Shown here: one piece after another, positions 23,387 through 42,939 of the stretch | How positions within the stretch are numbered: position 1 is the first letter of the stretch | Layout of the letters: each line of letters begins with the position of its first letter | IMG/VR virus record: IMGVR_UViG_2718218131_000006 | Source of the DNA: a virus | Lineage: Duplodnaviria; Heunggongvirae; Uroviricota; Caudoviricetes | Reading direction: 5' to 3' (one strand) | DNA: 49,917 nucleotides | Position numbers and translations under genes: made by a program | Notes under the pieces: generated by a model | Told to the model about the DNA's origin: nothing | Databases searched by the model: none | Seen by the model: the letters and a program-made list of their open reading frames with translations, nothing else

Positions 23387-23693
23387 TCAGGCTGCCAGAT
23401 CATCGTTTCCGATGGAAGCATAATAAGCTTTTTCTGCTTCTGCCGGTGGGATATGGCCCAGCCTTTCCAGCAATCGTCGATTGTTATACCAGTCCACCCA
23501 CGTGAGTGTGGCCAGCTCCACTTCTGTCCGGTTTTTCCAGCTCTTACGGTGTATTACCTCCGCTTTGTAAAGGCCATTGATGCTCTCCGCCATCGCGTTG
23601 TCATACGAGTCACCAGTACTTCCTGTTGATGCCAGTAATCCGGCTTCCTTAAGCCGCTGTGTGTAGGCCAGCGATACATACTGAGAACCTTTA
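23387..23693 (-). pseudogene. IS629 transposase orfB, C-terminal fragment (interrupted)
   Basis: GSQYVSLAYTQRLKEAGLLASTGSTGDSYDNAMAE...WYNNRRL is the IS3-family integrase core C-terminus. Confidence 0.8.
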
Positions 23694-23830
23694 TTGCAAA
23701 ATGGCATCTGAATCGATCGCAGTTTGGCATTCGAATCGATCATGATTTGGCATCCATCTCCGATCACAGTTTGGCATCACAATCGATCACGATTTGGCAT
23801 GCTTCCGATCATTGATTGGCATCCTGCCAG
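23694..23830. repeat. Multiple terminal direct repeats of the IS21-family element (left end)
   Basis: Five copies of roughly GATCANNGTTTGGCAT at about 23-bp spacing; related copies at the right end (26250-26342). Confidence 0.75.
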
Positions 23831-23896
23831 TCACTCCGGGAATTAACTCTTTTCACCACAGTCTCCATTGCCGTGTTTAAACCAGTGGAGACGTCA

Positions 23897-25462
23897 ATGT
23901 CCAGAAAGAGAAAATCCAGGAGCACTATGGAAACCTGTTTTAAGATTCTTCAGCTCAAGTTCGACAAGAAGCTGACTAACCGTTGTATCGGACTGACGTT
24001 ACACATCAGCGCCTCAACCGTTTTTGAGGTTCTTGCCCGCTTCAAAGCCTCTTCTCTGTCATGGCCATTACCTGCTGATATATCCCATGACACGCTGGAG
24101 AAACTCATTTTTCCGCCCAAAGACACCTTTGCATCAGAGCTTGTAATGCCTGACATGTTGTACCTCGATACGGAAATGAGAAAACCAGGTGTGACGCGGC
24201 AACTGTTGTGGATGGAATACAAGGCACAGGCGGGTAACAAAGCGATGGGATACTCGCACTTCTGCCGTTGCTACCGGGAGTGGAAAAAAACGCGACGTCT
24301 CTCCATGCGCCAGGAGCATCGTGCCGGCGAAAAGCTTTTTATCGACTTCTGTGGTCCTACGGTTCCTGTTATTAATCCGGACACCGGTGAGATACGCCGC
24401 GTGGCAATCTTCGTGGCCGTAATGGGGGCGTCCAACTATACCTACGTTGAAGCGTGCGAAGGTCAGGACATGATGTCATGGTTAAATGCCCACAGCCGTT
24501 GCCTGACCTTCCTGGGCGGCGTACCGAAGCTGCTCATCCCCGATAACCTCAGAAGCGCAGTGAAAAAGGCCGATCGATATGAGCCTGTCATCAACGACAG
24601 TTATCAGGCACTGGCTGAGCACTATGGCACGGTTATCATCCCGGCCCGACCACGCAAACCTAAAGATAAACCAAAAGCAGAAAACGGCGTCCTCATCGTC
24701 GAACGATGGCTTCTTGCCCGCATCCGTAATGAAACCTTCCACACGCTCAGGGCGCTGAATGCGCGCCTTAGGGAGTTACTGACAGACATGAATAACCGGC
24801 CAATGAAGGGGTACGGCAATCAAACCCGTGCAGAACGCTTCCGCATACTGGATGCGCCAGCACTCTCTCCGCTGCCTCTGGCACCTTATGAATACACGGA
24901 ATACAAAGCTGTGAAGGTTGGCCCTGACTACCACGTTGAATATGCCCGTCACTGGTACTCCGTTCCACACGAACTGGTCGGTCAGCGTCTGTCACTGAAG
25001 GCGGGGCAGTCGGTGGTACAGCTCTGGCACAAGGGGCAGTGTGTGGCGCAACATCCGCGCAGCACACATGAATATAAACACACAACCAATCCGCTTCACA
25101 TGCCAGAGCGCCACCGGCAGCACGGGACATGGACACCGGAACGCCTGATCGAGCAGGGAAAACGTACGGGCCCGTCCACAGGCCGGGTGGTTGAATCCAT
25201 GCTGAAGGCAAAACCCCATCCGGAACTGGCTTATCGTGCAGTTCTGGGGCTGCTGGCACTTCAGAAAAAATACGGCCCGGAACGGCTGGAAAAGGCCTGT
25301 TACGTTGCCCTGCACTATAACGCCCCTGACAGACGCTTTATCGACAATCTGCTGCGTCACCATCGGGAGAACCTGGAGCTTCCATTATCCCGCCAGGGCG
25401 AACAACATCCGGCATATGCTTCAGAGCATGAAAACCTGCGTGGTCCGGGCTACTACCACTGA
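23897..25462 (+). CDS. istA: IS21-family transposase IstA
   Basis: N-terminal helix-turn-helix followed by an integrase-like catalytic core; GGAG ribosome-binding site; followed by the IstB ATPase. Confidence 0.85.
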   Translation: MSRKRKSRSTMETCFKILQLKFDKKLTNRCIGLTLHISASTVFEVLARFKASSLSWPLPADISHDTLEKLIFPPKDTFASELVMPDMLYLDTEMRKPGVTRQLLWMEYKAQAGNKAMGYSHFCRCYREWKKTRRLSMRQEHRAGEKLFIDFCGPTVPVINPDTGEIRRVAIFVAVMGASNYTYVEACEGQDMMSWLNAHSRCLTFLGGVPKLLIPDNLRSAVKKADRYEPVINDSYQALAEHYGTVIIPARPRKPKDKPKAENGVLIVERWLLARIRNETFHTLRALNARLRELLTDMNNRPMKGYGNQTRAERFRILDAPALSPLPLAPYEYTEYKAVKVGPDYHVEYARHWYSVPHELVGQRLSLKAGQSVVQLWHKGQCVAQHPRSTHEYKHTTNPLHMPERHRQHGTWTPERLIEQGKRTGPSTGRVVESMLKAKPHPELAYRAVLGLLALQKKYGPERLEKACYVALHYNAPDRRFIDNLLRHHRENLELPLSRQGEQHPAYASEHENLRGPGYYH

Positions 25463-25478
25463 CAGAAGGAACAACAGT

Positions 25479-26234
25479 ATGAGTGATAACCTGTTAAACA
25501 AACTGACCCAACTGAAACTCCCGGCGATGGCCGGGAGCCTGATACGGCAGCGGGAAACGCCTCAGACCTACGACGAACTGTCGTTCGAGGAAAGGCTGAC
25601 GCTGCTGGTTGATGACGAGCTTCTGAGCAGGGAAAACAGCCGTGTGGCACGGTTGAGAAAAAATGCCGGCCTGAAATACCAGGCAACACCGGAAGGGCTG
25701 CGCTATCCGGCCTCAAGAGGTCTGCGGGCTGAACAGATGAGAGAACTGCTGAACGGCCACTACATAACCCACAGGAAAAACCTGCTGATAACCGGTCCGA
25801 CAGGATGTGGCAAGAGCTGGATAGCCAATGCGCTGGGCGAACAGGCATGTCGACAGAAACACAGCGTCCGGTACTGTAGAACCGGGCGATTACTGGAACA
25901 ACTGGCTCAGGGACGTGTTGATGGCAGCTGGCTGAAATATCTGAAACAGTTGCAAAAAATACAGGTTCTAATCCTGGACGATCTGGGGCTGGAACAGTTA
26001 AGTAACGCCCAGTGTAATGACCTTCTGGAGCTCATAGAGGATCGTTACGGACAAAGCAGCACGATAGTGGTAAGCCAGTTCCCGGTAGATAAATGGCATG
26101 GTCTGATGGAGAACCCAACAACAGCAGATGCCATCCTGGACAGACTGGTACATAACTCACACCGGGTGGTCCTTCAGGGAGAGTCACTGAGGAAAAATCC
26201 CCCGGTAGTGGAAAGCAGCGAAAAAACGCGTTAA
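25479..26234 (+). CDS. istB: IS21-family helper ATPase IstB
   Basis: Walker A motif ITGPTGCGKSW, Walker B LILDDLG; typical IstB length. Confidence 0.88.
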   Translation: MSDNLLNKLTQLKLPAMAGSLIRQRETPQTYDELSFEERLTLLVDDELLSRENSRVARLRKNAGLKYQATPEGLRYPASRGLRAEQMRELLNGHYITHRKNLLITGPTGCGKSWIANALGEQACRQKHSVRYCRTGRLLEQLAQGRVDGSWLKYLKQLQKIQVLILDDLGLEQLSNAQCNDLLELIEDRYGQSSTIVVSQFPVDKWHGLMENPTTADAILDRLVHNSHRVVLQGESLRKNPPVVESSEKTR

Positions 26235-26341
26235 AAAGCGGTAGAAAAAGTTAAGTTCCCGGTTGATCGAATGGATGCGAATCGCTGATCGGACTTCGAT
26301 GCCAATCCGTGATCGAATAGAGCGGAATACGCACCTTTATC

Positions 26342-26923
26342 ACTGTGATGGACTGTGCCGGACGGTCGACGGGCCCATAACGCCTGCTCCAGAGCATCCA
26401 GCACGAATGTCGTTTCCATAGACGATGAGACCCGCCACCCCACGATGTATCCGGCAAACACATCAATGATGAACGCCACATAGACGCCCCCCTGCCATGT
26501 GCTGACGTAAGTAAAATCAGCCACCCACAACTGGTCAGGACGTTCTGCCACAAACTGACGGTTTACGCGGTCGCCTGCGGCAACGGCTTTCCGGCTGACG
26601 GTAGTGCGGACCTTTTTACCCCGGAGAACACCGGCAAGTCCCATAACCGCCATGAGGCGCGCCACTGTACATCTGGCTACCCTGATTCCTTCCCGTAACA
26701 ACTGACGCCAGACTTTACGCACACCGTATACCTGATGATTCCCATCGTATACGCGCAGTATCTCTTTCTTCAGCCAGTCATCGCGCTGCGCACGGGCACT
26801 GCGTTTATCAGGATGATGTCGCTGTTGCTGACAGTGGTAATACGTTGACGGGGCAATATGTAGTTCACTGCATACCGGTCCGACCCCGTACAGCTTACGC
26901 AGCTTATCCAGCAGTGGCATCAC
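26342..26923 (-). pseudogene. IS629 transposase orfB, N-terminal fragment (interrupted)
   Basis: ...DQLWVADFTYVSTWQGGVYVAFIIDVFAGYIVGW...HHSDKG, then runs into IS21 end sequence. Confidence 0.8.
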
Positions 26924-27246
26924 TTTTTCCAGAGGCGGTCGAACTCCGCCTTTGCAAAATAAGCGGAAGCCTGGCGAAGGATATCGTTACTGCGGCGCAG
27001 TTCACGATTTTCACGTTCCAGCTCTTTCAGACGCTGACGTTCAGCGGTGGTGAGCCCGCCATCACCGCCTCCGGTATCCCGCTCATGCTGGCGTACCCAG
27101 ACACGCAGAGTCTCCGGTGTACAGCCAATCTTTGGGGCAATGGAACAAATTGCCGCCCACTGTGAGTCATATTCGCCCTGACTTTCCAGAACCATACGAA
27201 TCGCCCTCTGACGGACTTCGGGGGAAAAACGAGTATTTTTAGTCAT
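26920..27246 (-). CDS. IS629 OrfA (helix-turn-helix, leucine-zipper transposase subunit)
   Basis: [57 protein letters not shown] matches my memory of IS629 OrfA. Confidence 0.85.
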
Positions 27247-27722: not shown

Positions 27723-28037
27723 TTAGCATTTTTTTGACCGCGCGTTTCCGGACGTATTCTGTTCTCCTGTCCCTTTATATCGTCGGAATACCCGCCGCTC
27801 TTCAAATCCCATTCCCAACTCAGAATGTAGTCTGTTGACCGCTTGTTTTATTTCGGTCAGGTTCACCGGTGAAACCGGAGTCCGGCGCGCCTTACGCAAA
27901 CACTCTGCTCGTTTCTGTGCCGCCACTTTTCTTTTCTGGTCATCACTTAGCTGTACCATCACTTTTGCCCATCGTTCAGCTGCTCTCCGGTACAGTCCTT
28001 TTTTCTCCAGACATTCTGCCACGTGATCATGTAGCAT
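27723..28037 (-). CDS. pch: PerC-family transcriptional regulator (Pch-like, the prophage-encoded activator of LEE in EHEC)
   Basis: 104 aa starting MLHDHVAECLEKKGLYRRAAERWAKVMVQ; GLYRRAAERW is the PerC signature as I recall it; long AT-rich upstream region. Confidence 0.6.
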   Translation of the reverse strand: MLHDHVAECLEKKGLYRRAAERWAKVMVQLSDDQKRKVAAQKRAECLRKARRTPVSPVNLTEIKQAVNRLHSELGMGFEERRVFRRYKGTGEQNTSGNARSKKC

Positions 28038-33793: not shown

Positions 33794-34975
33794 TCATGCT
33801 TTCCACTTCAGGACACCCGAATTTCTCGCGTGCATTAAAAAACGAATCAGCAACAACAGCTGGCTGCCGTGTTTTTCTTCAAAATCTTTTACCCCGGCGT
33901 GCAGTTCGTTATGACATTTACGGCACAGCGGAATAACAAACAAATCATCAGCCTTTGTTCCCATCCCTCCCAGTCCATGACCAATGATGTGATGCGGATC
34001 ATCTGCCTGATTACCGCACGTCATGCATTTCTGCGTTTTTACCCAACGCGTGTATACAGGCATCTCTTCCCGTTGTGGTTTCTGGCGCTGGAGATACTGA
34101 GCCGGTGACTCCGGATCAACGGCAATGCTGACCACCGTCTTTTCCTGTGGCGGGTTTTGCTGGTGGGCGTGAGGCAGCGGCGCAAGATTTTTTGTGCGCT
34201 GCTTCAGTATGCTGGTGGCGGTCTGCTCTCCCGGTACGATGTCGCTTTCACGGTACATTGAGCGGATTTTTTCCGCACGCAACCCCAGCGAACGACGTAA
34301 TACCGCTTCCGGTAGCGCGTCCGCCACCTGATTGCGGACCGCCCACCAGGATAATTCAGCCAAAGATAATTCACGCTCCTGCGTACCGCTTATTGCGTGA
34401 CCGATGACGTCAATCATCCATGCTGACAGGTTTTGATGAGCAAGTTGCTCGAGTGATTCGGATGTCTGGTCACGCAGCTGGTTGTCACAGTGCCAGCACA
34501 ACACCATCGCGCCAGCGCCATAACGGTGAATGACGGTTTCACTGTGGTGATAATCGCCGTGTGGCCACTGGCAGGATTTAACATGGCGCAGTAACCAGTC
34601 AGACAATGCGCCAGCGCCACCAGCAGCACGAATCACCCGTTCGTCGCTGAAAAATGGCAGTAATGATTTATCCTCCGCCAGCGGCTGGCGAACGTCAGGG
34701 ACGATGCCGGACGGCAGACCGCGCATGCTTTTGGGTTCCGGCTCCACCAGCACTCGAGGATTGTGAAATACCTGCATGGATTCACGACCTGGCTTAAGGA
34801 CCACCAGCCCGAGTTCCGGTACCAGAACAGGTCGAAGTAATACCCGCACGTTACCTCCAGATCCGTTGCTGGAATGTGCGGGACGGACGCGGTGGGCGTT
34901 CAGAGTAAGGCAGTCTGACTGAGATGATCCAGTGTCGGAAGTCGAGGCTGAGGTCTTTCTGAAACTCGTAACCAC
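33794..34975 (-). CDS. DUF968-like phage protein with C-terminal HNH-like Cys/His motif
   Basis: C-terminus CMTCGNQADDPHHIIGHGLGG...CRKCHNELH; true start may be the internal Met at 34777. Confidence 0.6.
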   Translation of the reverse strand: MVTSFRKTSASTSDTGSSQSDCLTLNAHRVRPAHSSNGSGGNVRVLLRPVLVPELGLVVLKPGRESMQVFHNPRVLVEPEPKSMRGLPSGIVPDVRQPLAEDKSLLPFFSDERVIRAAGGAGALSDWLLRHVKSCQWPHGDYHHSETVIHRYGAGAMVLCWHCDNQLRDQTSESLEQLAHQNLSAWMIDVIGHAISGTQERELSLAELSWWAVRNQVADALPEAVLRRSLGLRAEKIRSMYRESDIVPGEQTATSILKQRTKNLAPLPHAHQQNPPQEKTVVSIAVDPESPAQYLQRQKPQREEMPVYTRWVKTQKCMTCGNQADDPHHIIGHGLGGMGTKADDLFVIPLCRKCHNELHAGVKDFEEKHGSQLLLLIRFLMHARNSGVLKWKA

Positions 34976-35129
34976 GTCTGCGGTAGTTCTGAATCAGCCA
35001 TTCGGCCTGTTCTTCAGTGCATGGATCATGCTGGAACCAGTCAGATTTGAATGCATGAGAACGCCGCCCGCGCCTGCTGGCAGGGACGGCGAGATTATCA
35101 GAATTGTGTAATTTGGTATCGTGCGCCAT
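34851..35129 (-). CDS. Hypothetical protein
   Basis: ORF only; weak ribosome-binding site; overlaps the upstream end of the DUF968 ORF if that uses its long start. Confidence 0.3.
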   Translation of the reverse strand: MAHDTKLHNSDNLAVPASRRGRRSHAFKSDWFQHDPCTEEQAEWLIQNYRRRGYEFQKDLSLDFRHWIISVRLPYSERPPRPSRTFQQRIWR

Positions 35130-35214
35130 CGGTTGTCTCTGCTGGCGCATCTTTGTCAGGTAAAATGGTGTTCAGCCATTTTGGGTGGCATTATTGTTGA
35201 TACATACAACTTGT

Positions 35215-35427
35215 TCAAGTCCGCATAAACTGATACACGATCTCCCTGAGCACTGTTTTCGATACAATTCGCTCATCAGCCCGCAAAGCTCTTACCCTAA
35301 GCATGTTCCCTTTTCGATGCCATACAGCTCTGGCTCCATCCGGAAAACAATCCATTTCAGCTACAACCGACATATCGTCACAACGAATAACTGCGTACTT
35401 ACAATTCGCGGCGATCAACTTCTGCAT
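35215..35427 (-). CDS. Hypothetical small protein
   Basis: 70-aa ORF in an AT-rich islet; no family recognised. Confidence 0.3.
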   Translation of the reverse strand: MQKLIAANCKYAVIRCDDMSVVAEMDCFPDGARAVWHRKGNMLRVRALRADERIVSKTVLREIVYQFMRT

Positions 35428-35656
35428 TGTAAAACCTCTGGTATTGGATAAAACATGGCTGGAATATATCCACTACAAATAACGATTTCACTCCCAAAAA
35501 ATGCGTATTTCATGAGAAAAAACAATGACTTTTTCTTTCTGTCATTTGTATACTCTAAAAATAGAGTGTTTTTTGAGCCGCCATTCCTTAGCAAGTCCTC
35601 TGTATGGATATTGCCTGCCCTATTTAATTGTGTCACACTATGTATTACACAACGGT

Positions 35657-36040
35657 ATGGAACCAAACATGCGCATTTTCAAAAATGCCTGGTTTGAACG
35701 CTTCGCACGAAAAAATCGGATTTCCGATAAAGCTCTGCGAGAAGTCGTGGAACTAGCTGATAAGGGACTCATATCCGCAGATTTGGGTAGTGGTGTCATT
35801 AAGCAGCGATTAGCCCGAAGAGGTGGCGGTAAATCAGGCGGTTATAGGACAATAATTTTTTACCGCGTCGCAGAAAAGGCTTTTTTCATCTATGCGTACG
35901 CAAAGAATGAGAGAGAAAATATTACAGCCATCGAGGAAAACGCATTTCGAAAAGCTGCGCATCACGTTCTCAATCTTACTGATGAACAACTGGCGCAATT
36001 GATCCTGCAAGGTCAGTTTACGGAGGTACCCAATGAGTAA
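35657..36040 (+). CDS. HigB2/Gp49-like (RelE/ParE superfamily) toxin
   Basis: GSGVIKQRLARRGGGKSGGYRTIIFYRVAEKAFFIYAYAKNE matches the HigB-2/Gp49 pattern; start could be 35669. Confidence 0.65.
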   Translation: MEPNMRIFKNAWFERFARKNRISDKALREVVELADKGLISADLGSGVIKQRLARRGGGKSGGYRTIIFYRVAEKAFFIYAYAKNERENITAIEENAFRKAAHHVLNLTDEQLAQLILQGQFTEVPNE

Positions 36041-36350
36041 AAATTACCGCAGTGATGCACTTGCATCCGTACATGAAATGATGGAGTCACTTCAGGATAT
36101 TGGCGCAGTTACAAAACAAACTATGAGAGAGTTTGATGAACTCTGTCTGCAACCAGCGCCAACAATGTCGCCAGAAAGAATCCGGGCACTTCGCGAGCGC
36201 GAGCATCTGTCTCAACCTGTTTTCGCCAGATATCTTAATGTCAGTAAAAACCTCATTTCAGACTGGGAAAGGGGAATAAAGCGCCCTGGTGGCCCTGCCC
36301 TTCGTTTGCTTTCTGTGGTTGAGAAAAACGGAATTCAGTCAATCTGTTAA
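36033..36350 (+). CDS. HigA2-like XRE-family helix-turn-helix antitoxin
   Basis: 105 aa with C-terminal helix-turn-helix LSQPVFARYLNVSKNLISDWERG; GGAGG ribosome-binding site; 8-nt overlap with the toxin stop. Confidence 0.65.
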   Translation: MSKNYRSDALASVHEMMESLQDIGAVTKQTMREFDELCLQPAPTMSPERIRALREREHLSQPVFARYLNVSKNLISDWERGIKRPGGPALRLLSVVEKNGIQSIC

Positions 36351-36371
36351 TAAAAATTCACCATGAACAGC

Positions 36372-36401
36372 AAAACCCCGGACCATCAATCCGGGGTTTT
36401 T
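36372..36401 (+). terminator. Rho-independent terminator after the toxin-antitoxin operon
   Basis: CCCCGGA-ccatcaa-TCCGGGG then TTTTT. Confidence 0.7.
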
Positions 36402-36486
36402 GTTTGTTATCCCCAGCGGCAAATCGAATACACCACCAGCGCCACCGCCATCGCAATTCCTACCATTGTGAATGCTTCAGGCCAGG

Positions 36487-37017
36487 TCATTGATTCACCT
36501 CCTGCGGTGGTTCCGGTAGCGGCATCCAGTGAGTTGCCTGCTCAATACCATTACCCGGCTTAATCGTTGCTTCTCCTCGCCGGAATGTGCTTCCTGTATA
36601 GCGTGCGGAGCATATTAGCGGTTCAACCAGAGAGCTATCGAAATTCACCGAAATAAGCACGTTCTGGTTCTTTTCAGGCATCCGCTCACTACAGCTTATC
36701 CAACCATCCGGAATTACCGGCGCTGACGGCGCTGCGTAAAGCGGTGTTATTTCTGCCCGAAAGTCACCTATTTCATGCAGTCGCACCCAGCGTTCGACTT
36801 CTGCTTTGTCAGAATACATAGTGGTGAACGTATTATATTTATTGTCAATTTGCGTGAAGGTTGCCTTCCACGCCACTGGCTCTGCTTCCAGCGATGCCAG
36901 TGCAATCCGTGCCAGTTCTTCTGCTTCTTCTGCTGGCAGTACAACGTTGCTACCCGGTCCGTATGTTTCGCGCCACTGCTTGATTGTCAGCAGTCGCCCT
37001 TTGGTTATAGTGGTCAT
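36487..37017 (-). CDS. DUF551-domain phage protein
   Basis: C-terminal WISCSERMPE...ATHWMPLPEPP is the DUF551 hallmark. Confidence 0.65.
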   Translation of the reverse strand: MTTITKGRLLTIKQWRETYGPGSNVVLPAEEAEELARIALASLEAEPVAWKATFTQIDNKYNTFTTMYSDKAEVERWVRLHEIGDFRAEITPLYAAPSAPVIPDGWISCSERMPEKNQNVLISVNFDSSLVEPLICSARYTGSTFRRGEATIKPGNGIEQATHWMPLPEPPQEVNQ

Positions 37018-37223
37018 TTGTTAATCCTCAAAACTTTATGCCCGGGCGCAAAAGCACGCGTTTTGTCTTTGCTTATTCGCCAGCCATCCTTGCGCGCCTC
37101 TTTTGCACAGCCAGCCCATGACGTACCGATATATTCACCGAAGTCTGGCGTTTGATATTTACCATTTGTACACTGGCGACAATCACAGTAGAGATGCATG
37201 GTGTAACTTGCGGCAATAGCCAT
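37014..37223 (-). CDS. Small cysteine-rich hypothetical protein
   Basis: 69 aa from MAIAASYTMHLYCDCRQCTNGKY; AGGAGA ribosome-binding site; ATGA overlap with the downstream gene. Confidence 0.55.
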   Translation of the reverse strand: MAIAASYTMHLYCDCRQCTNGKYQTPDFGEYIGTSWAGCAKEARKDGWRISKDKTRAFAPGHKVLRINK

Positions 37224-37224
37224 A

Positions 37225-37995
37225 TCACTCTCCTTTGATGCGAATACCAGCAGCGCGCTCGGCTTCACTTTGTTCCCAAAACCACTTGTGAAGCGCCATA
37301 AGCTTTTCGTCAATCGGTGCATATTTGCGATTAAAGTAGGCCTGAGCATCTTTCTCAGATTCGTCCGGTAATTCGCCAGGGCCAAACAGTGTGTTATAAA
37401 TCCATGCTAGTCCGCTCTTAGCGTCGCCAGTTGCCTGCCATTCGATAATGGCAGCCTGCATGACCAGAATGTTTTTCCCGATTAATAGGTCCAGTTCTTT
37501 GTACCGGTTGCGGATGTATGCATTCTCGCTTTGTAATTTTGCGTTGCGCTTTTCTGAGGCTTCAAGTAACGCCTGCTTATCGCGTAGCGCTTCTTCCAGT
37601 TCAGCAACATGGCATTCACTATCAATAAGGTTGTTCTCTGCTGCTTCAAGCTCAACACGCAGCTTCCCAACCGTAAGCGCAATCTCCTCGTTCTCCTGAT
37701 CGCGGCGTTTTATGTATTGCTGGTTTCTTTCCCGTTCATCCAGTAGTGCCAGCACGGTAGCCGGGTTAGCCTCTGCTATGAATTCAGCGTTTGCATAAGC
37801 CTGAGCATCTGTTTCAACCAGGCAGTTAACGTGACATTCTGCAATTACGCCACCGGGTTCTCCTTTCCATTTTTGACAAACAAAAACTCCTGTTAAATTG
37901 CCGTGCTGGTTAACAGATGTATGCCCTACGATGTAGCTTCCTTTAGTTGCTTTCTCTGCCTTTTCACGCAGTGCCTGAAAGTCAATCTTGCTCAC
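37225..37995 (-). CDS. Paralogue 1 of a mosaic phage protein family (possibly Ead/Ea22-like), GTG start
   Basis: AAGGAGG then GTG; begins SKIDFQALREKAEKATKG; coiled-coil C-terminus. Confidence 0.6.
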   Translation of the reverse strand: MSKIDFQALREKAEKATKGSYIVGHTSVNQHGNLTGVFVCQKWKGEPGGVIAECHVNCLVETDAQAYANAEFIAEANPATVLALLDERERNQQYIKRRDQENEEIALTVGKLRVELEAAENNLIDSECHVAELEEALRDKQALLEASEKRNAKLQSENAYIRNRYKELDLLIGKNILVMQAAIIEWQATGDAKSGLAWIYNTLFGPGELPDESEKDAQAYFNRKYAPIDEKLMALHKWFWEQSEAERAAGIRIKGE

Positions 37996-41174: not shown

Positions 41175-42140
41175 TTACCCCCTGAAGCCCGGCGGAATTT
41201 CGGTATCCGGTTCAGAAATGTGATTCACACAACGCTGTACAGGCGAACGCCCCAGACGAATAACCAGCTCATCCCATTTTTCGCGAAGCTTTGACGGGCT
41301 CATGACGTTTTTTACCCAGAAGGGATCCCGCTGCACCCGACCAAACATTTCGCAAATTTGTCTGTGAGTTCTGCCATCCAGCATCCGCATTGTGCGCACA
41401 TCATTGGCCCATGCAGCCCAGTTGGGTTCTTTCGGTCGCATGATTTCGCCATCATCGCTGGCAGCCTGCTCGTAAAGACTCACGATTCGTCCCCAGATCC
41501 ACTGCGCACACGCTAAATCTTCCTGGCTACCCCACTGGCGTTTTTTCGCACTGAACACAACCGCGTCAGGGTGTCGGGTTAAAAAATCCTGTTCAGCCGT
41601 CTGCATGTCCGGTTGCGAAGCTTCCGGACGAGAAGTGTTTTTATTCTCTGTAGTGATCTCTGTTGTATTCTCTGTAAGATCATCAGGCCATTTTGACCCG
41701 ATGACATTGTGTCGTTTTGAACCAATGGAGCGTGTCATTTTGGCCTCTTCCATCGTGTCATTTTGACCTGATGGAGCGGCGCATTTTGACCTGATGGATT
41801 CGCTCACTTTGCCACCATCTAAAAGCTCGCTCTCGTAATTAATCGTGTAAAAATTAGTCATGTCACGCTTTGATTTGTTGAGCTTTTCGCAACGCAAAAG
41901 CCCCAGCGCTTTCAGACTTGCAAATGCGCGTTTTAACGTTGACTCTGACCAGAACGGGAACTGTTCCAGCCATTGTTCTGTTGTGTTATAAATCCAGCGA
42001 ACACCATCACATTCCATGCCGGAACCGGTATCTCTCAACCAGTAATGCAGCTGCTGCAACACGATGGCTTCGTTCAGACCAATTTTCATCGCCAGCTGCG
42101 TGTTAATAACCAGTGGGCGTTCAGCAAAAAGAAGACTCAT
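41175..42140 (-). CDS. Replication initiator (O-like organiser) with origin iterons inside the coding sequence
   Basis: Position between the cro-proximal gene and the DnaC-like gene; contains an iteron array; start set at MSLLFAERP. Confidence 0.7.
   Translation of the reverse strand: MSLLFAERPLVINTQLAMKIGLNEAIVLQQLHYWLRDTGSGMECDGVRWIYNTTEQWLEQFPFWSESTLKRAFASLKALGLLRCEKLNKSKRDMTNFYTINYESELLDGGKVSESIRSKCAAPSGQNDTMEEAKMTRSIGSKRHNVIGSKWPDDLTENTTEITTENKNTSRPEASQPDMQTAEQDFLTRHPDAVVFSAKKRQWGSQEDLACAQWIWGRIVSLYEQAASDDGEIMRPKEPNWAAWANDVRTMRMLDGRTHRQICEMFGRVQRDPFWVKNVMSPSKLREKWDELVIRLGRSPVQRCVNHISEPDTEIPPGFRG
41685..41805. repeat. Putative origin iterons: 5-6 copies of about CATTTTGACCTGATGGA at 23-24 bp spacing, with an AT-rich block at 41820-41870
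   Basis: Repeats read directly, for example ccattttgacccgatg, gtcattttgacctgatggagcg, gcgcattttgacctgatggattcg. Confidence 0.65.
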
Positions 42141-42642
42141 AATTCCATCCGACTTTTTGTTGATATTGCTGACGATACGCACGCTTGAAAGCAATGGCTT
42201 TTTCTATAAGCTCGTCAGTCTCACGTTCCACAACAGCTGGATCCGCAAAAAGCAGCCCGGACTCCACCACATCGCCATATTCTTTGTTTAACCCGGCGAT
42301 CATGTACGTAATGCTTTTTCCGTCAGTAATTTCACAATACAACCTGAAATCGCTGATCCGGATAGCCTCCATAATTGCCGGAATCAGCGCCGTGAATTTT
42401 TCACGCTTATCCCTGGTGTCGATAGCTTTCCAGCGTTCGAATATCTTCACCCTGTTAACGCCCAGCGCCCGTTGATCAACCGCGCCATCATCAAACGTGA
42501 CGCGATGAACATCGATGTTCGGGCGTTCTTTCAGAGCCCAGAATGCTTCCGTGATTAATATCGTCGCCTGCTCCTGCGTCATTCCTGGTCGGCATACCCA
42601 GGCATCCAGAGCCTCGCGAGCCTGCTCAGGAGTGAATATCAT
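42121..42642 (-). CDS. Hypothetical early protein (possibly YdaT/cII-like)
   Basis: 173-aa ORF between the cro-like and O-like genes; family assignment is a guess. Confidence 0.5.
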   Translation of the reverse strand: MIFTPEQAREALDAWVCRPGMTQEQATILITEAFWALKERPNIDVHRVTFDDGAVDQRALGVNRVKIFERWKAIDTRDKREKFTALIPAIMEAIRISDFRLYCEITDGKSITYMIAGLNKEYGDVVESGLLFADPAVVERETDELIEKAIAFKRAYRQQYQQKVGWNYESSFC

Positions 42643-42901
42643 TGTTCACCGCCAGTGATTCATTCGACATACACTTATTTTCACAAGGTAGTCCATCTGT
42701 TGGGTTGGGATAAATGTCAGGGCGAAGTTCGTGGGGAGTAATTTCCCAATTCAGTAATGCACAGAGTGACGACACGCGTTCAGCAGGAACCTTGCCTTTA
42801 ATGAACCACTTGCCTACGGCCTGGGAGCTAATGCCAAAGTGTTTGCCAATGTCAGTTTTCGACATTTTTTTAGAGATCTTATCGTGAATTTGATTACTCA
42901 T
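42626..42901 (-). CDS. Cro/DicC-like small helix-turn-helix regulator
   Basis: Divergent from the repressor; MSKTDIGKHFGISSQAVGKWF resembles the DicC/YdaS N-terminus; start could be 42864. Confidence 0.6.
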   Translation of the reverse strand: MSNQIHDKISKKMSKTDIGKHFGISSQAVGKWFIKGKVPAERVSSLCALLNWEITPHELRPDIYPNPTDGLPCENKCMSNESLAVNNDIHS

Positions 42902-42939
42902 ACTTTCCACCAGTACTATTAATTTCACCTACGCTACCA

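Follow-up and report, generated by a model that had tools for sequence, protein, structure and literature searches.

A probable HigB2/HigA2-family toxin–antitoxin operon in a recurrent cargo slot of a Rac/Qin-like lambdoid prophage of Escherichia coli

The window analysed here, the whole 49,917-nt stretch of the IMG/VR virus record IMGVR_UViG_2718218131_000006, is a complete lambdoid prophage of Escherichia coli, Rac/Qin-like in type, and its nin-like region contains a pair of overlapping genes read toxin first, in the order and at the location that the first-pass annotation of this DNA had described. We conclude, with a probability of roughly 0.8, that the pair is an intact type II toxin–antitoxin (TA) operon of the HigB2/HigA2 family, carried by the prophage as self-contained cargo. 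Judging from its sequence, the module is real and probably functional, and it is an uncharacterised E. coli member of a TA family whose structure and biochemistry are already understood. The region from 34700 to 37300 is 100% identical to that of strain Z1323CEC0005 (NZ_CP148474), and the prophages of other poultry isolates are 99-100% identical to the window. In RefSeq the two proteins bear the names "type II toxin-antitoxin system RelE/ParE family toxin" (WP_001217946.1) and "helix-turn-helix domain-containing protein" (WP_000042399.1).

The toxin matches PF06296, a family now called "RelE" and formerly DUF1044, with an E value of about 4e-47 (4.2e-47 to 4.7e-47) and 159.6 bits against a cut-off of 27, and the match extends over positions 1-120 of the 120-position profile. 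Because of this E value (4.7e-47), the two genes are not a chance pair of open reading frames (ORFs). A Pfam-A hmmscan at E ≤ 10 gave no other family for the toxin. The profiles PF05015 (HigB) and PF05973 (Gp49), which the first-pass annotation had named for a check of its prediction, were absent even at that threshold, and the correct family is PF06296; no NCBIfam model matched the toxin. The proposed likeness to HigB2/HigA2 itself was borne out, as HigB-2 and HigA-2 of Vibrio cholerae are both the nearest solved relatives by sequence and the top-ranked, though statistically weak, fold matches. The nearest Protein Data Bank (PDB) sequences to the toxin are the HigB-2 chains, found with an E value of 2e-4 from the single sequence and 6e-5 from a 45-sequence profile, and the PDB searches with the toxin returned no HigB of Rts1 or of K-12. 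Moreover, a 61-residue fragment of HigB-2 taken from the PDB alignment itself passes PF06296, with 29.8 bits against the cut-off of 27. When aligned with HMMER to 5JA9 and 5JA8, where the chain numbering of 5JA9 is the native numbering of HigB2, K45, R47, R60, Y77 and K79 of the toxin correspond to K49, R51, R64, Y82 and K84 of V. cholerae HigB2 (VcHigB2). Mutagenesis by Hadzi et al. showed that R51, R64, Y82 and K84 form a RelE-like active site in VcHigB2 (PMC5416850), and K49 was added to these residues by the study of the Coxiella system (PMC10098735). Among 45 homologues of the toxin, no variation is seen at K45, R60 or K79, the conservation of R47 is 90% or more, and a Gly-rich, basic β2-β3 loop common to the toxin and HigB-2 is conserved as well. 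The AlphaFold2 model of the toxin has a pLDDT of 74, with residues 36-57 poorly modelled.

The antitoxin is recognised by HTH_3 of Pfam (E 8e-8) and by phrog_2104 (E 1e-40), and NCBIfam gave for it only sub-threshold matches to generic helix-turn-helix, MqsA and NadS models. Its nearest solved relative is HigA-2 (5jaa), which aligns over residues 44-99 with an E value of 9e-8 from the single sequence and 2e-8 from the profile. The top Foldseek match is likewise 5jaa_A (probability 0.97), with about 37% identity over 56-57 residues or columns and weak statistics. The 43-residue N-terminal extension preceding this domain is highly conserved in the family and is predicted to form helices at residues 8-22 and 28-37, a pattern that fits a toxin-binding segment without proving one.

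The toxin gene (35669-36040, + strand) encodes a HigB2-like protein of 123 aa, a predicted RelE-fold mRNA endonuclease, and the antitoxin gene (36033-36350, + strand) encodes a HigA2-like protein of 105 aa that consists of about 43 N-terminal residues and a C-terminal XRE helix-turn-helix. Since the toxin stop codon TAA occupies 36038-36040 and the antitoxin ATG begins at 36033, the genes overlap by 8 nt; they stand toxin first in one operon, with one terminator only, after the antitoxin gene. These coordinates agree with the overlapping arrangement described at first pass, except that the toxin had been started 12 nt too early, at the in-frame ATG at 35657. We place the true start at 35669 because the first residue of the longer version to be matched by Pfam is residue 5, because nearly all homologues of the toxin are 123-124 aa long and begin with MRIFKN, because PGAP calls this start in the identical record, and because megablast similarity to 85%-identical relatives begins exactly there. 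A still longer ORF of 171 aa, from an ATG at 35525, was dropped as the toxin start on the grounds of the Pfam match and the homologue starts. The toxin start region is weak (GGAA, 6 nt, ATG 35669). The GGAGG ribosome-binding site attributed earlier to the operon does exist (36022-36026, + strand), but it is the Shine-Dalgarno sequence of the antitoxin gene, whose ATG follows after 6 nt, and is itself embedded in the 3′ end of the toxin gene. The operon also has, as had been stated, its own intrinsic terminator, a hairpin at 36372-36400 (+ strand) with an 11-bp stem that includes 6 G-C pairs and is followed by TTTTTGTTTGTT; its 71-nt context on the + strand has a folding energy of -20.9 kcal/mol (z = -4.0), and none of 200 shuffled sequences was as stable. 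On the - strand, which faces the early-right transcript, the same hairpin is followed by UUUUGCUGUU, a weaker U tract; its stability is less exceptional there (z = -1.75), and it was not called in the terminator scan.

Upstream of the toxin gene there is an AT-rich divergent intergenic region (35428-35668), which is the putative promoter/operator region of the TA operon. Its GC content of 35.3% falls within the lowest 1.2% of windows of the same size, which agrees with the AT-rich upstream sequence noted at first pass, although its length is 241 bp rather than about 300 bp. The claim of a distinct composition holds only mildly for the genes themselves, whose GC content of 45.2% (10.6th percentile) compares with a mean of 51.8% for the window and with 54% and 49% in the flanks. 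Within this region lies an imperfect 25-bp palindrome, TTGTGTCACAC-TAT-GTATTACACAA (35628-35652), with its end 17 nt from the toxin ATG; no other upstream block is common to three divergent loci, and the palindrome is unique in the window. Each of the five TA loci fetched has a single copy of its core, ACACTATGTRTTA, immediately before the toxin gene, and none of the 11 loci without the TA pair has it. Because the palindrome is conserved and specific to the TA loci, and because HigA2 of V. cholerae likewise recognises one inverted repeat overlapping its promoter (PMC11006873), we propose it as a candidate operator for the antitoxin. A candidate sigma-70 promoter, ATGACT-18-TATACT (35525-35554, + strand), is a consensus match only and is kept as ATGACT...TACAAT in a locus of about 80% nucleotide identity (L004). 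Inspection by eye of 35600-35668 revealed no LexA box and no convincing proximal -35/-10 pair, and an Rfam search of 34800-36800 at E ≤ 1 gave matches at chance level only, with no known small RNA or leader.

The only aspect of this locus that goes beyond routine annotation is the place in which the pair lies. The structural, lysis, Q, nin-like, replication and cro-side genes of the window are carried on the - strand, and the repressor, early-left genes and int on the + strand; the TA pair, on the + strand, is opposite to all adjacent phage genes; it converges with a DUF551 gene (37017-36487) and diverges from the genes leading to DUF968-RusA-Q. Three other loci (L002, L003 and L004) are similar to the window up to about 35149 and again from 36404-36411 onwards, right after the terminator, and these breaks delimit a variable cargo slot at 35150-36403. 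Its left border is a 92-aa small phage gene (phrog_1212; 34851-35129, - strand) directly upstream of DUF968-RusA-Q, and on the right the slot is bounded by a conserved hydrophobic ORF of 27 aa (36407-36490, - strand), MTWPEAFTMVGIAMAVALVVYSICRWG, whose ATG overlaps the DUF551 stop codon. This peptide (xWPEAF...ICRWG) is preserved even where a copy differs at many nucleotides, and the ORF is unannotated in all records inspected. The slot contains here a 70-aa ORF, the AT-rich spacer, the TA operon and the terminator. The 70-aa ORF (35215-35427, - strand; phrog_1813, E 6.9e-16) is confined to loci that have this slot allele and is left unannotated by PGAP in identical RefSeq records. In the three other loci the slot holds hokD and a hypothetical gene (L002), ParD/ParE, likewise on the + strand (L003), or a relative of the TA pair with about 80% identity together with hokD and an ORF6N gene (L004). 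Thus the AT-rich cargo that had been described as an islet is present, but it is one allele of a recurrent slot and not a one-off insertion.

To sample the slot by examples not chosen through similarity to the TA pair, the 92-bp right junction alone was used as a query. It was found at 3,106 places in 1,631 of 5,426 complete E. coli genomes (~30%), and in eight matches inspected, spread down the ranking, the slot carried at least one annotated toxin gene in every case (8/8). Two loci have Hok/Gef and a YgiW-like gene, one has ParDE, two have hokD with a 367-aa helix-turn-helix protein and a 216-aa protein, two have hokD with a 130-aa protein, and one has hokD with Doc. The 367-aa protein with its N-terminal helix-turn-helix and the 216-aa hypothetical protein, encoded beside hokD at 937-2671 (- strand) of the loci L012 and L013, may be another two-gene accessory or defence module. 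In the Qin prophage of K-12 (L007) the order is Q(ydfT)-ydfU(DUF968), a phrog_1212-like sequence, and rem-hokD-relE-relB, and from this order the classic relBE-hokD locus occupies the same slot. The phrog_1212 counterpart of K-12 MG1655, found by tblastn between ydfU and rem (3810-4085 of L007, 75% identity), is unannotated in NC_000913.3. The slot is a recurrent home for toxin–antitoxin genes, which include hokD, Hok/Gef, ParDE, Doc, relBE and the HigB2/HigA2-like pair. Within a limited coverage of the literature, we found no paper on the slot as a TA hotspot or on the E. coli module. With the slot it can be asked, in a defined natural system, why TA genes are retained by lambdoid prophages just upstream of the late-gene antiterminator and whether TA families are interchangeable there.

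A 991-bp query was found at full length with 98-99.9% identity in nine complete genomes, and about 239 of the 5,426 complete genomes (~4%) carry it or relatives of ~80-85% identity, including strains of O157:H7, O145, O103 and O104:H21. The relatives of the TA pair that were inspected lie in the same slot. Homologues of the toxin were found in 327 plasmid records across Proteobacteria versus 2 phage-collection records, and the sole close phage copy is that of Escherichia phage PhiR12_3 (PV340552, 4251-4973 of L006), which lies in the early-left region near int and not in a nin-like region. Both genes of PhiR12_3 are labelled hypothetical, and the frame of its annotated 84-aa toxin coding sequence (CDS) is not the one in which tblastn matches residues 15-123, pointing to either a frameshift or a miscall.

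Several observations weigh against an intact, functional HigB2/HigA2-family module. The toxin is split by a frameshift into two CDS, with the antitoxin intact, in several relatives. In E. coli O104:H21 CFSAN002236, for example, the two toxin pieces (1501-1873 of L008) are of 40 aa and 85 aa beside an intact antitoxin gene. Such splitting of the toxin is the usual route by which TA loci decay, and, read from these sequences, it indicates that the toxin is decaying and that its function is dispensable in some lineages. As regards the active site, position 77, equivalent to Y82 of VcHigB2, is mostly Phe in the 45 homologues and Tyr in the toxin of the window; Tyr75, two residues upstream, is invariant. 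The top two Foldseek matches of the toxin model in the PDB are HigB2 chains (8a0x_C and 8a0x_D), and they are statistically weak, with E values of 0.02-0.05 and TM scores of 0.36-0.41. Residues 1-43 of the antitoxin do not align to the neutralising segment of VcHigA2 (residues 1-36). The sole match of the promoter scan is about 115 nt upstream of the toxin ATG and is not kept in PhiR12_3. Finally, a search of PADLOC-DB 2.0 assigned neither protein to a TA-type defence model, with no match for the toxin and only generic helix-turn-helix matches for the antitoxin (RmrA, control protein and capH; E ≥ 3e-5).

The mode of action proposed here, comprising mRNA cleavage, neutralisation and autorepression, follows that of the characterised homologues (PMC5416850, PMC11006873, PMC10098735). 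By this analogy, the toxin would enter the ribosomal A site and cleave translated mRNA by means of its RelE-like Lys/Arg/Arg/Tyr/Lys site, the antitoxin would neutralise the toxin through its N-terminal segment of about 43 residues, and an antitoxin dimer would repress the operon by placing the C-terminal XRE helix-turn-helix on the palindrome upstream of the toxin start. The weakness of the toxin ribosome-binding site relative to the GGAGG of the overlapping antitoxin gene might, in addition, lead to excess synthesis of the antitoxin. Because the operon is transcribed against the early-right operon, it would, in a lysogen, use a promoter of its own and be unaffected by the repression of the phage promoter.

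What such a module does for the prophage can be answered only tentatively. We rank first an addiction-type role, in which loss or decay of the prophage segment would be penalised, and we hold it with somewhat less than even confidence; it is favoured because the family is rich in plasmid-borne members and these behave in such a manner. Anti-phage abortive infection comes second and appears rather unlikely. It would require that another phage depletes the labile antitoxin or stops host transcription, whereby the mRNase is freed and the lysogens are protected. The pair lies in a variable slot of a prophage where cargo is exchanged in a cassette-wise manner, as is typical of accessory and defence genes of prophages, and its opposite strand and own terminator point to expression independent of the early-right operon, both of which agree with a defence role. 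However, the PADLOC-DB result described above speaks against it, the literature searched yielded no defence phenotype of a PF06296 module, the toxin is frameshifted in several lineages, and the roles of the characterised members lie in maintaining plasmids or responding to stress (PMC5416850, PMC10098735). The third possibility, which we regard as more doubtful still, is that the pair is a decaying or neutral selfish passenger that persists because its deletion is harmful, or hitch-hikes with the prophage, and brings no benefit to phage or host. The split toxin beside an intact antitoxin in O104:H21 and other strains, the presence of any version in only ~4% of complete E. coli genomes, and the acceptance of many unrelated TA types by the slot are what such a passenger would lead one to expect, whereas the full-length ORFs and intact catalytic residues in the window and the copies of 98-99.9% identity in nine genomes with differing right-flank genes argue against it.

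A further explanation, which we consider improbable, would make the slot a dedicated, exchangeable TA bay that is crossed by the early-right transcript, with its opposite-strand occupants acting as an induction-coupled switch. The early-right transcript crosses the TA operon in antisense in order to reach Q, and therefore induction could lower antitoxin synthesis: antisense transcription driven through the operon by prophage induction would reduce the labile antitoxin and leave the toxin free. If that were true, the module would not be a simple addiction or defence gene but would shut off the host or punish abortive induction. Orientation is, however, no rule of the slot, because hokD, doc and relBE are not opposite to the phage genes, whereas ParDE is. 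With respect to the identity of the toxin rather than its role, membership in the classical HigB family (PF05015; the Rts1 and K-12 type) or in Gp49 (PF05973) is barely credible. The order of toxin before antitoxin is all that would recommend it, but the Pfam-A hmmscan at E ≤ 10, giving PF06296 alone, refutes the assignment, and the Rts1 and K-12 HigB proteins were missing from the PDB searches.

Other parts of the prophage showed features that are distinct from this operon. For the cro-side genes of the immunity region (42121-42928, - strand), the identical record gives a YdaS-family helix-turn-helix protein and a "toxin YdaT family protein"; these genes head the early-right operon and are separate from the HigB2/HigA2-like pair. 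Nested insertion sequences occupy 23387-27246, between the terminase genes and a PerC-like gene, and consist of an IS21-family element (IstA-like, 23816-25462; IstB-like, ending at 26234) within an IS3-family element, the orfA of which is at 26920-27246 (- strand) and the integrase-core ORF of which is apparently split into 26231-26923 and 23387-23767. The nearest relatives of the window have the IS3 element alone at this site. The PerC-family transcriptional activator gene (27723-28037, - strand; PF06069, E 3e-43) is prophage cargo downstream of the lysis genes.

Among known systems, the HigB-2/HigA-2 pair of the V. cholerae superintegron (PDB 5JA8, 5JAA and 8A0X) shares with the pair of the window the family PF06296, a toxin-first operon and the five active-site residues, as well as an antitoxin made of an N-terminal extension and an XRE helix-turn-helix. 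V. cholerae HigBA2 also has a single inverted-repeat operator beside the toxin gene (PMC11006873), for which the palindrome described here is a candidate counterpart. The similarity of the toxins is, however, low and detectable only over about 58 residues (E 2e-4), the neutralising N-terminal segment of HigA-2 cannot be aligned to the antitoxin of the window, the operator is TGTACGC-N5-GCGTACA in Vibrio in contrast to an ACAC-TAT-GT(A/G)T core in the window, and the host element is an integron cassette in V. cholerae and a lambdoid prophage in the present case. The ToxP/AntitoxP pair of the Coxiella burnetii plasmid QpH1 (CBUA0028/CBUA0027), homologous to HigB2/HigA2, has its genes in the same order, and experiments have established its toxicity, rescue, inhibition of translation and binding to the promoter (PMC10098735). 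The tblastn matches of the window toxin include Coxiella plasmids; ToxP/AntitoxP differs in being plasmid-borne in an obligate intracellular bacterium. The classical HigB/HigA of Proteus vulgaris Rts1 and the HigBA of K-12 (PF05015) share the toxin-first order, the RelE-superfamily fold predicted for the window toxin and a helix-turn-helix antitoxin, whereas their toxins belong to another Pfam family and are not matched by the window toxin. In addition, P. vulgaris HigB is devoid of the C-terminal helix, and P. vulgaris HigA is fully folded and neutralises its toxin differently (PMC5416850).

The remaining comparisons concern position rather than homology. The relBE-hokD locus of the cryptic prophage Qin of K-12 has the same position, between the early-right accessory genes and the block of small genes, ydfU(DUF968) and Q. 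It differs in being antitoxin-first, in having a ribbon-helix-helix antitoxin, RelB, in running co-directionally with the phage genes, and in a toxin from another Pfam family. RelE is nevertheless a ribosome-dependent mRNase of the RelE superfamily, as is predicted for the toxin of the window. ParD/ParE, Doc and Hok/Gef are alternative occupants of the identical slot, and ParDE, like the pair described here, lies opposite to the phage genes. ParE, Doc and Hok are unrelated toxins, which are, respectively, a gyrase poison, a Fic-fold kinase and a membrane peptide under antisense RNA control.

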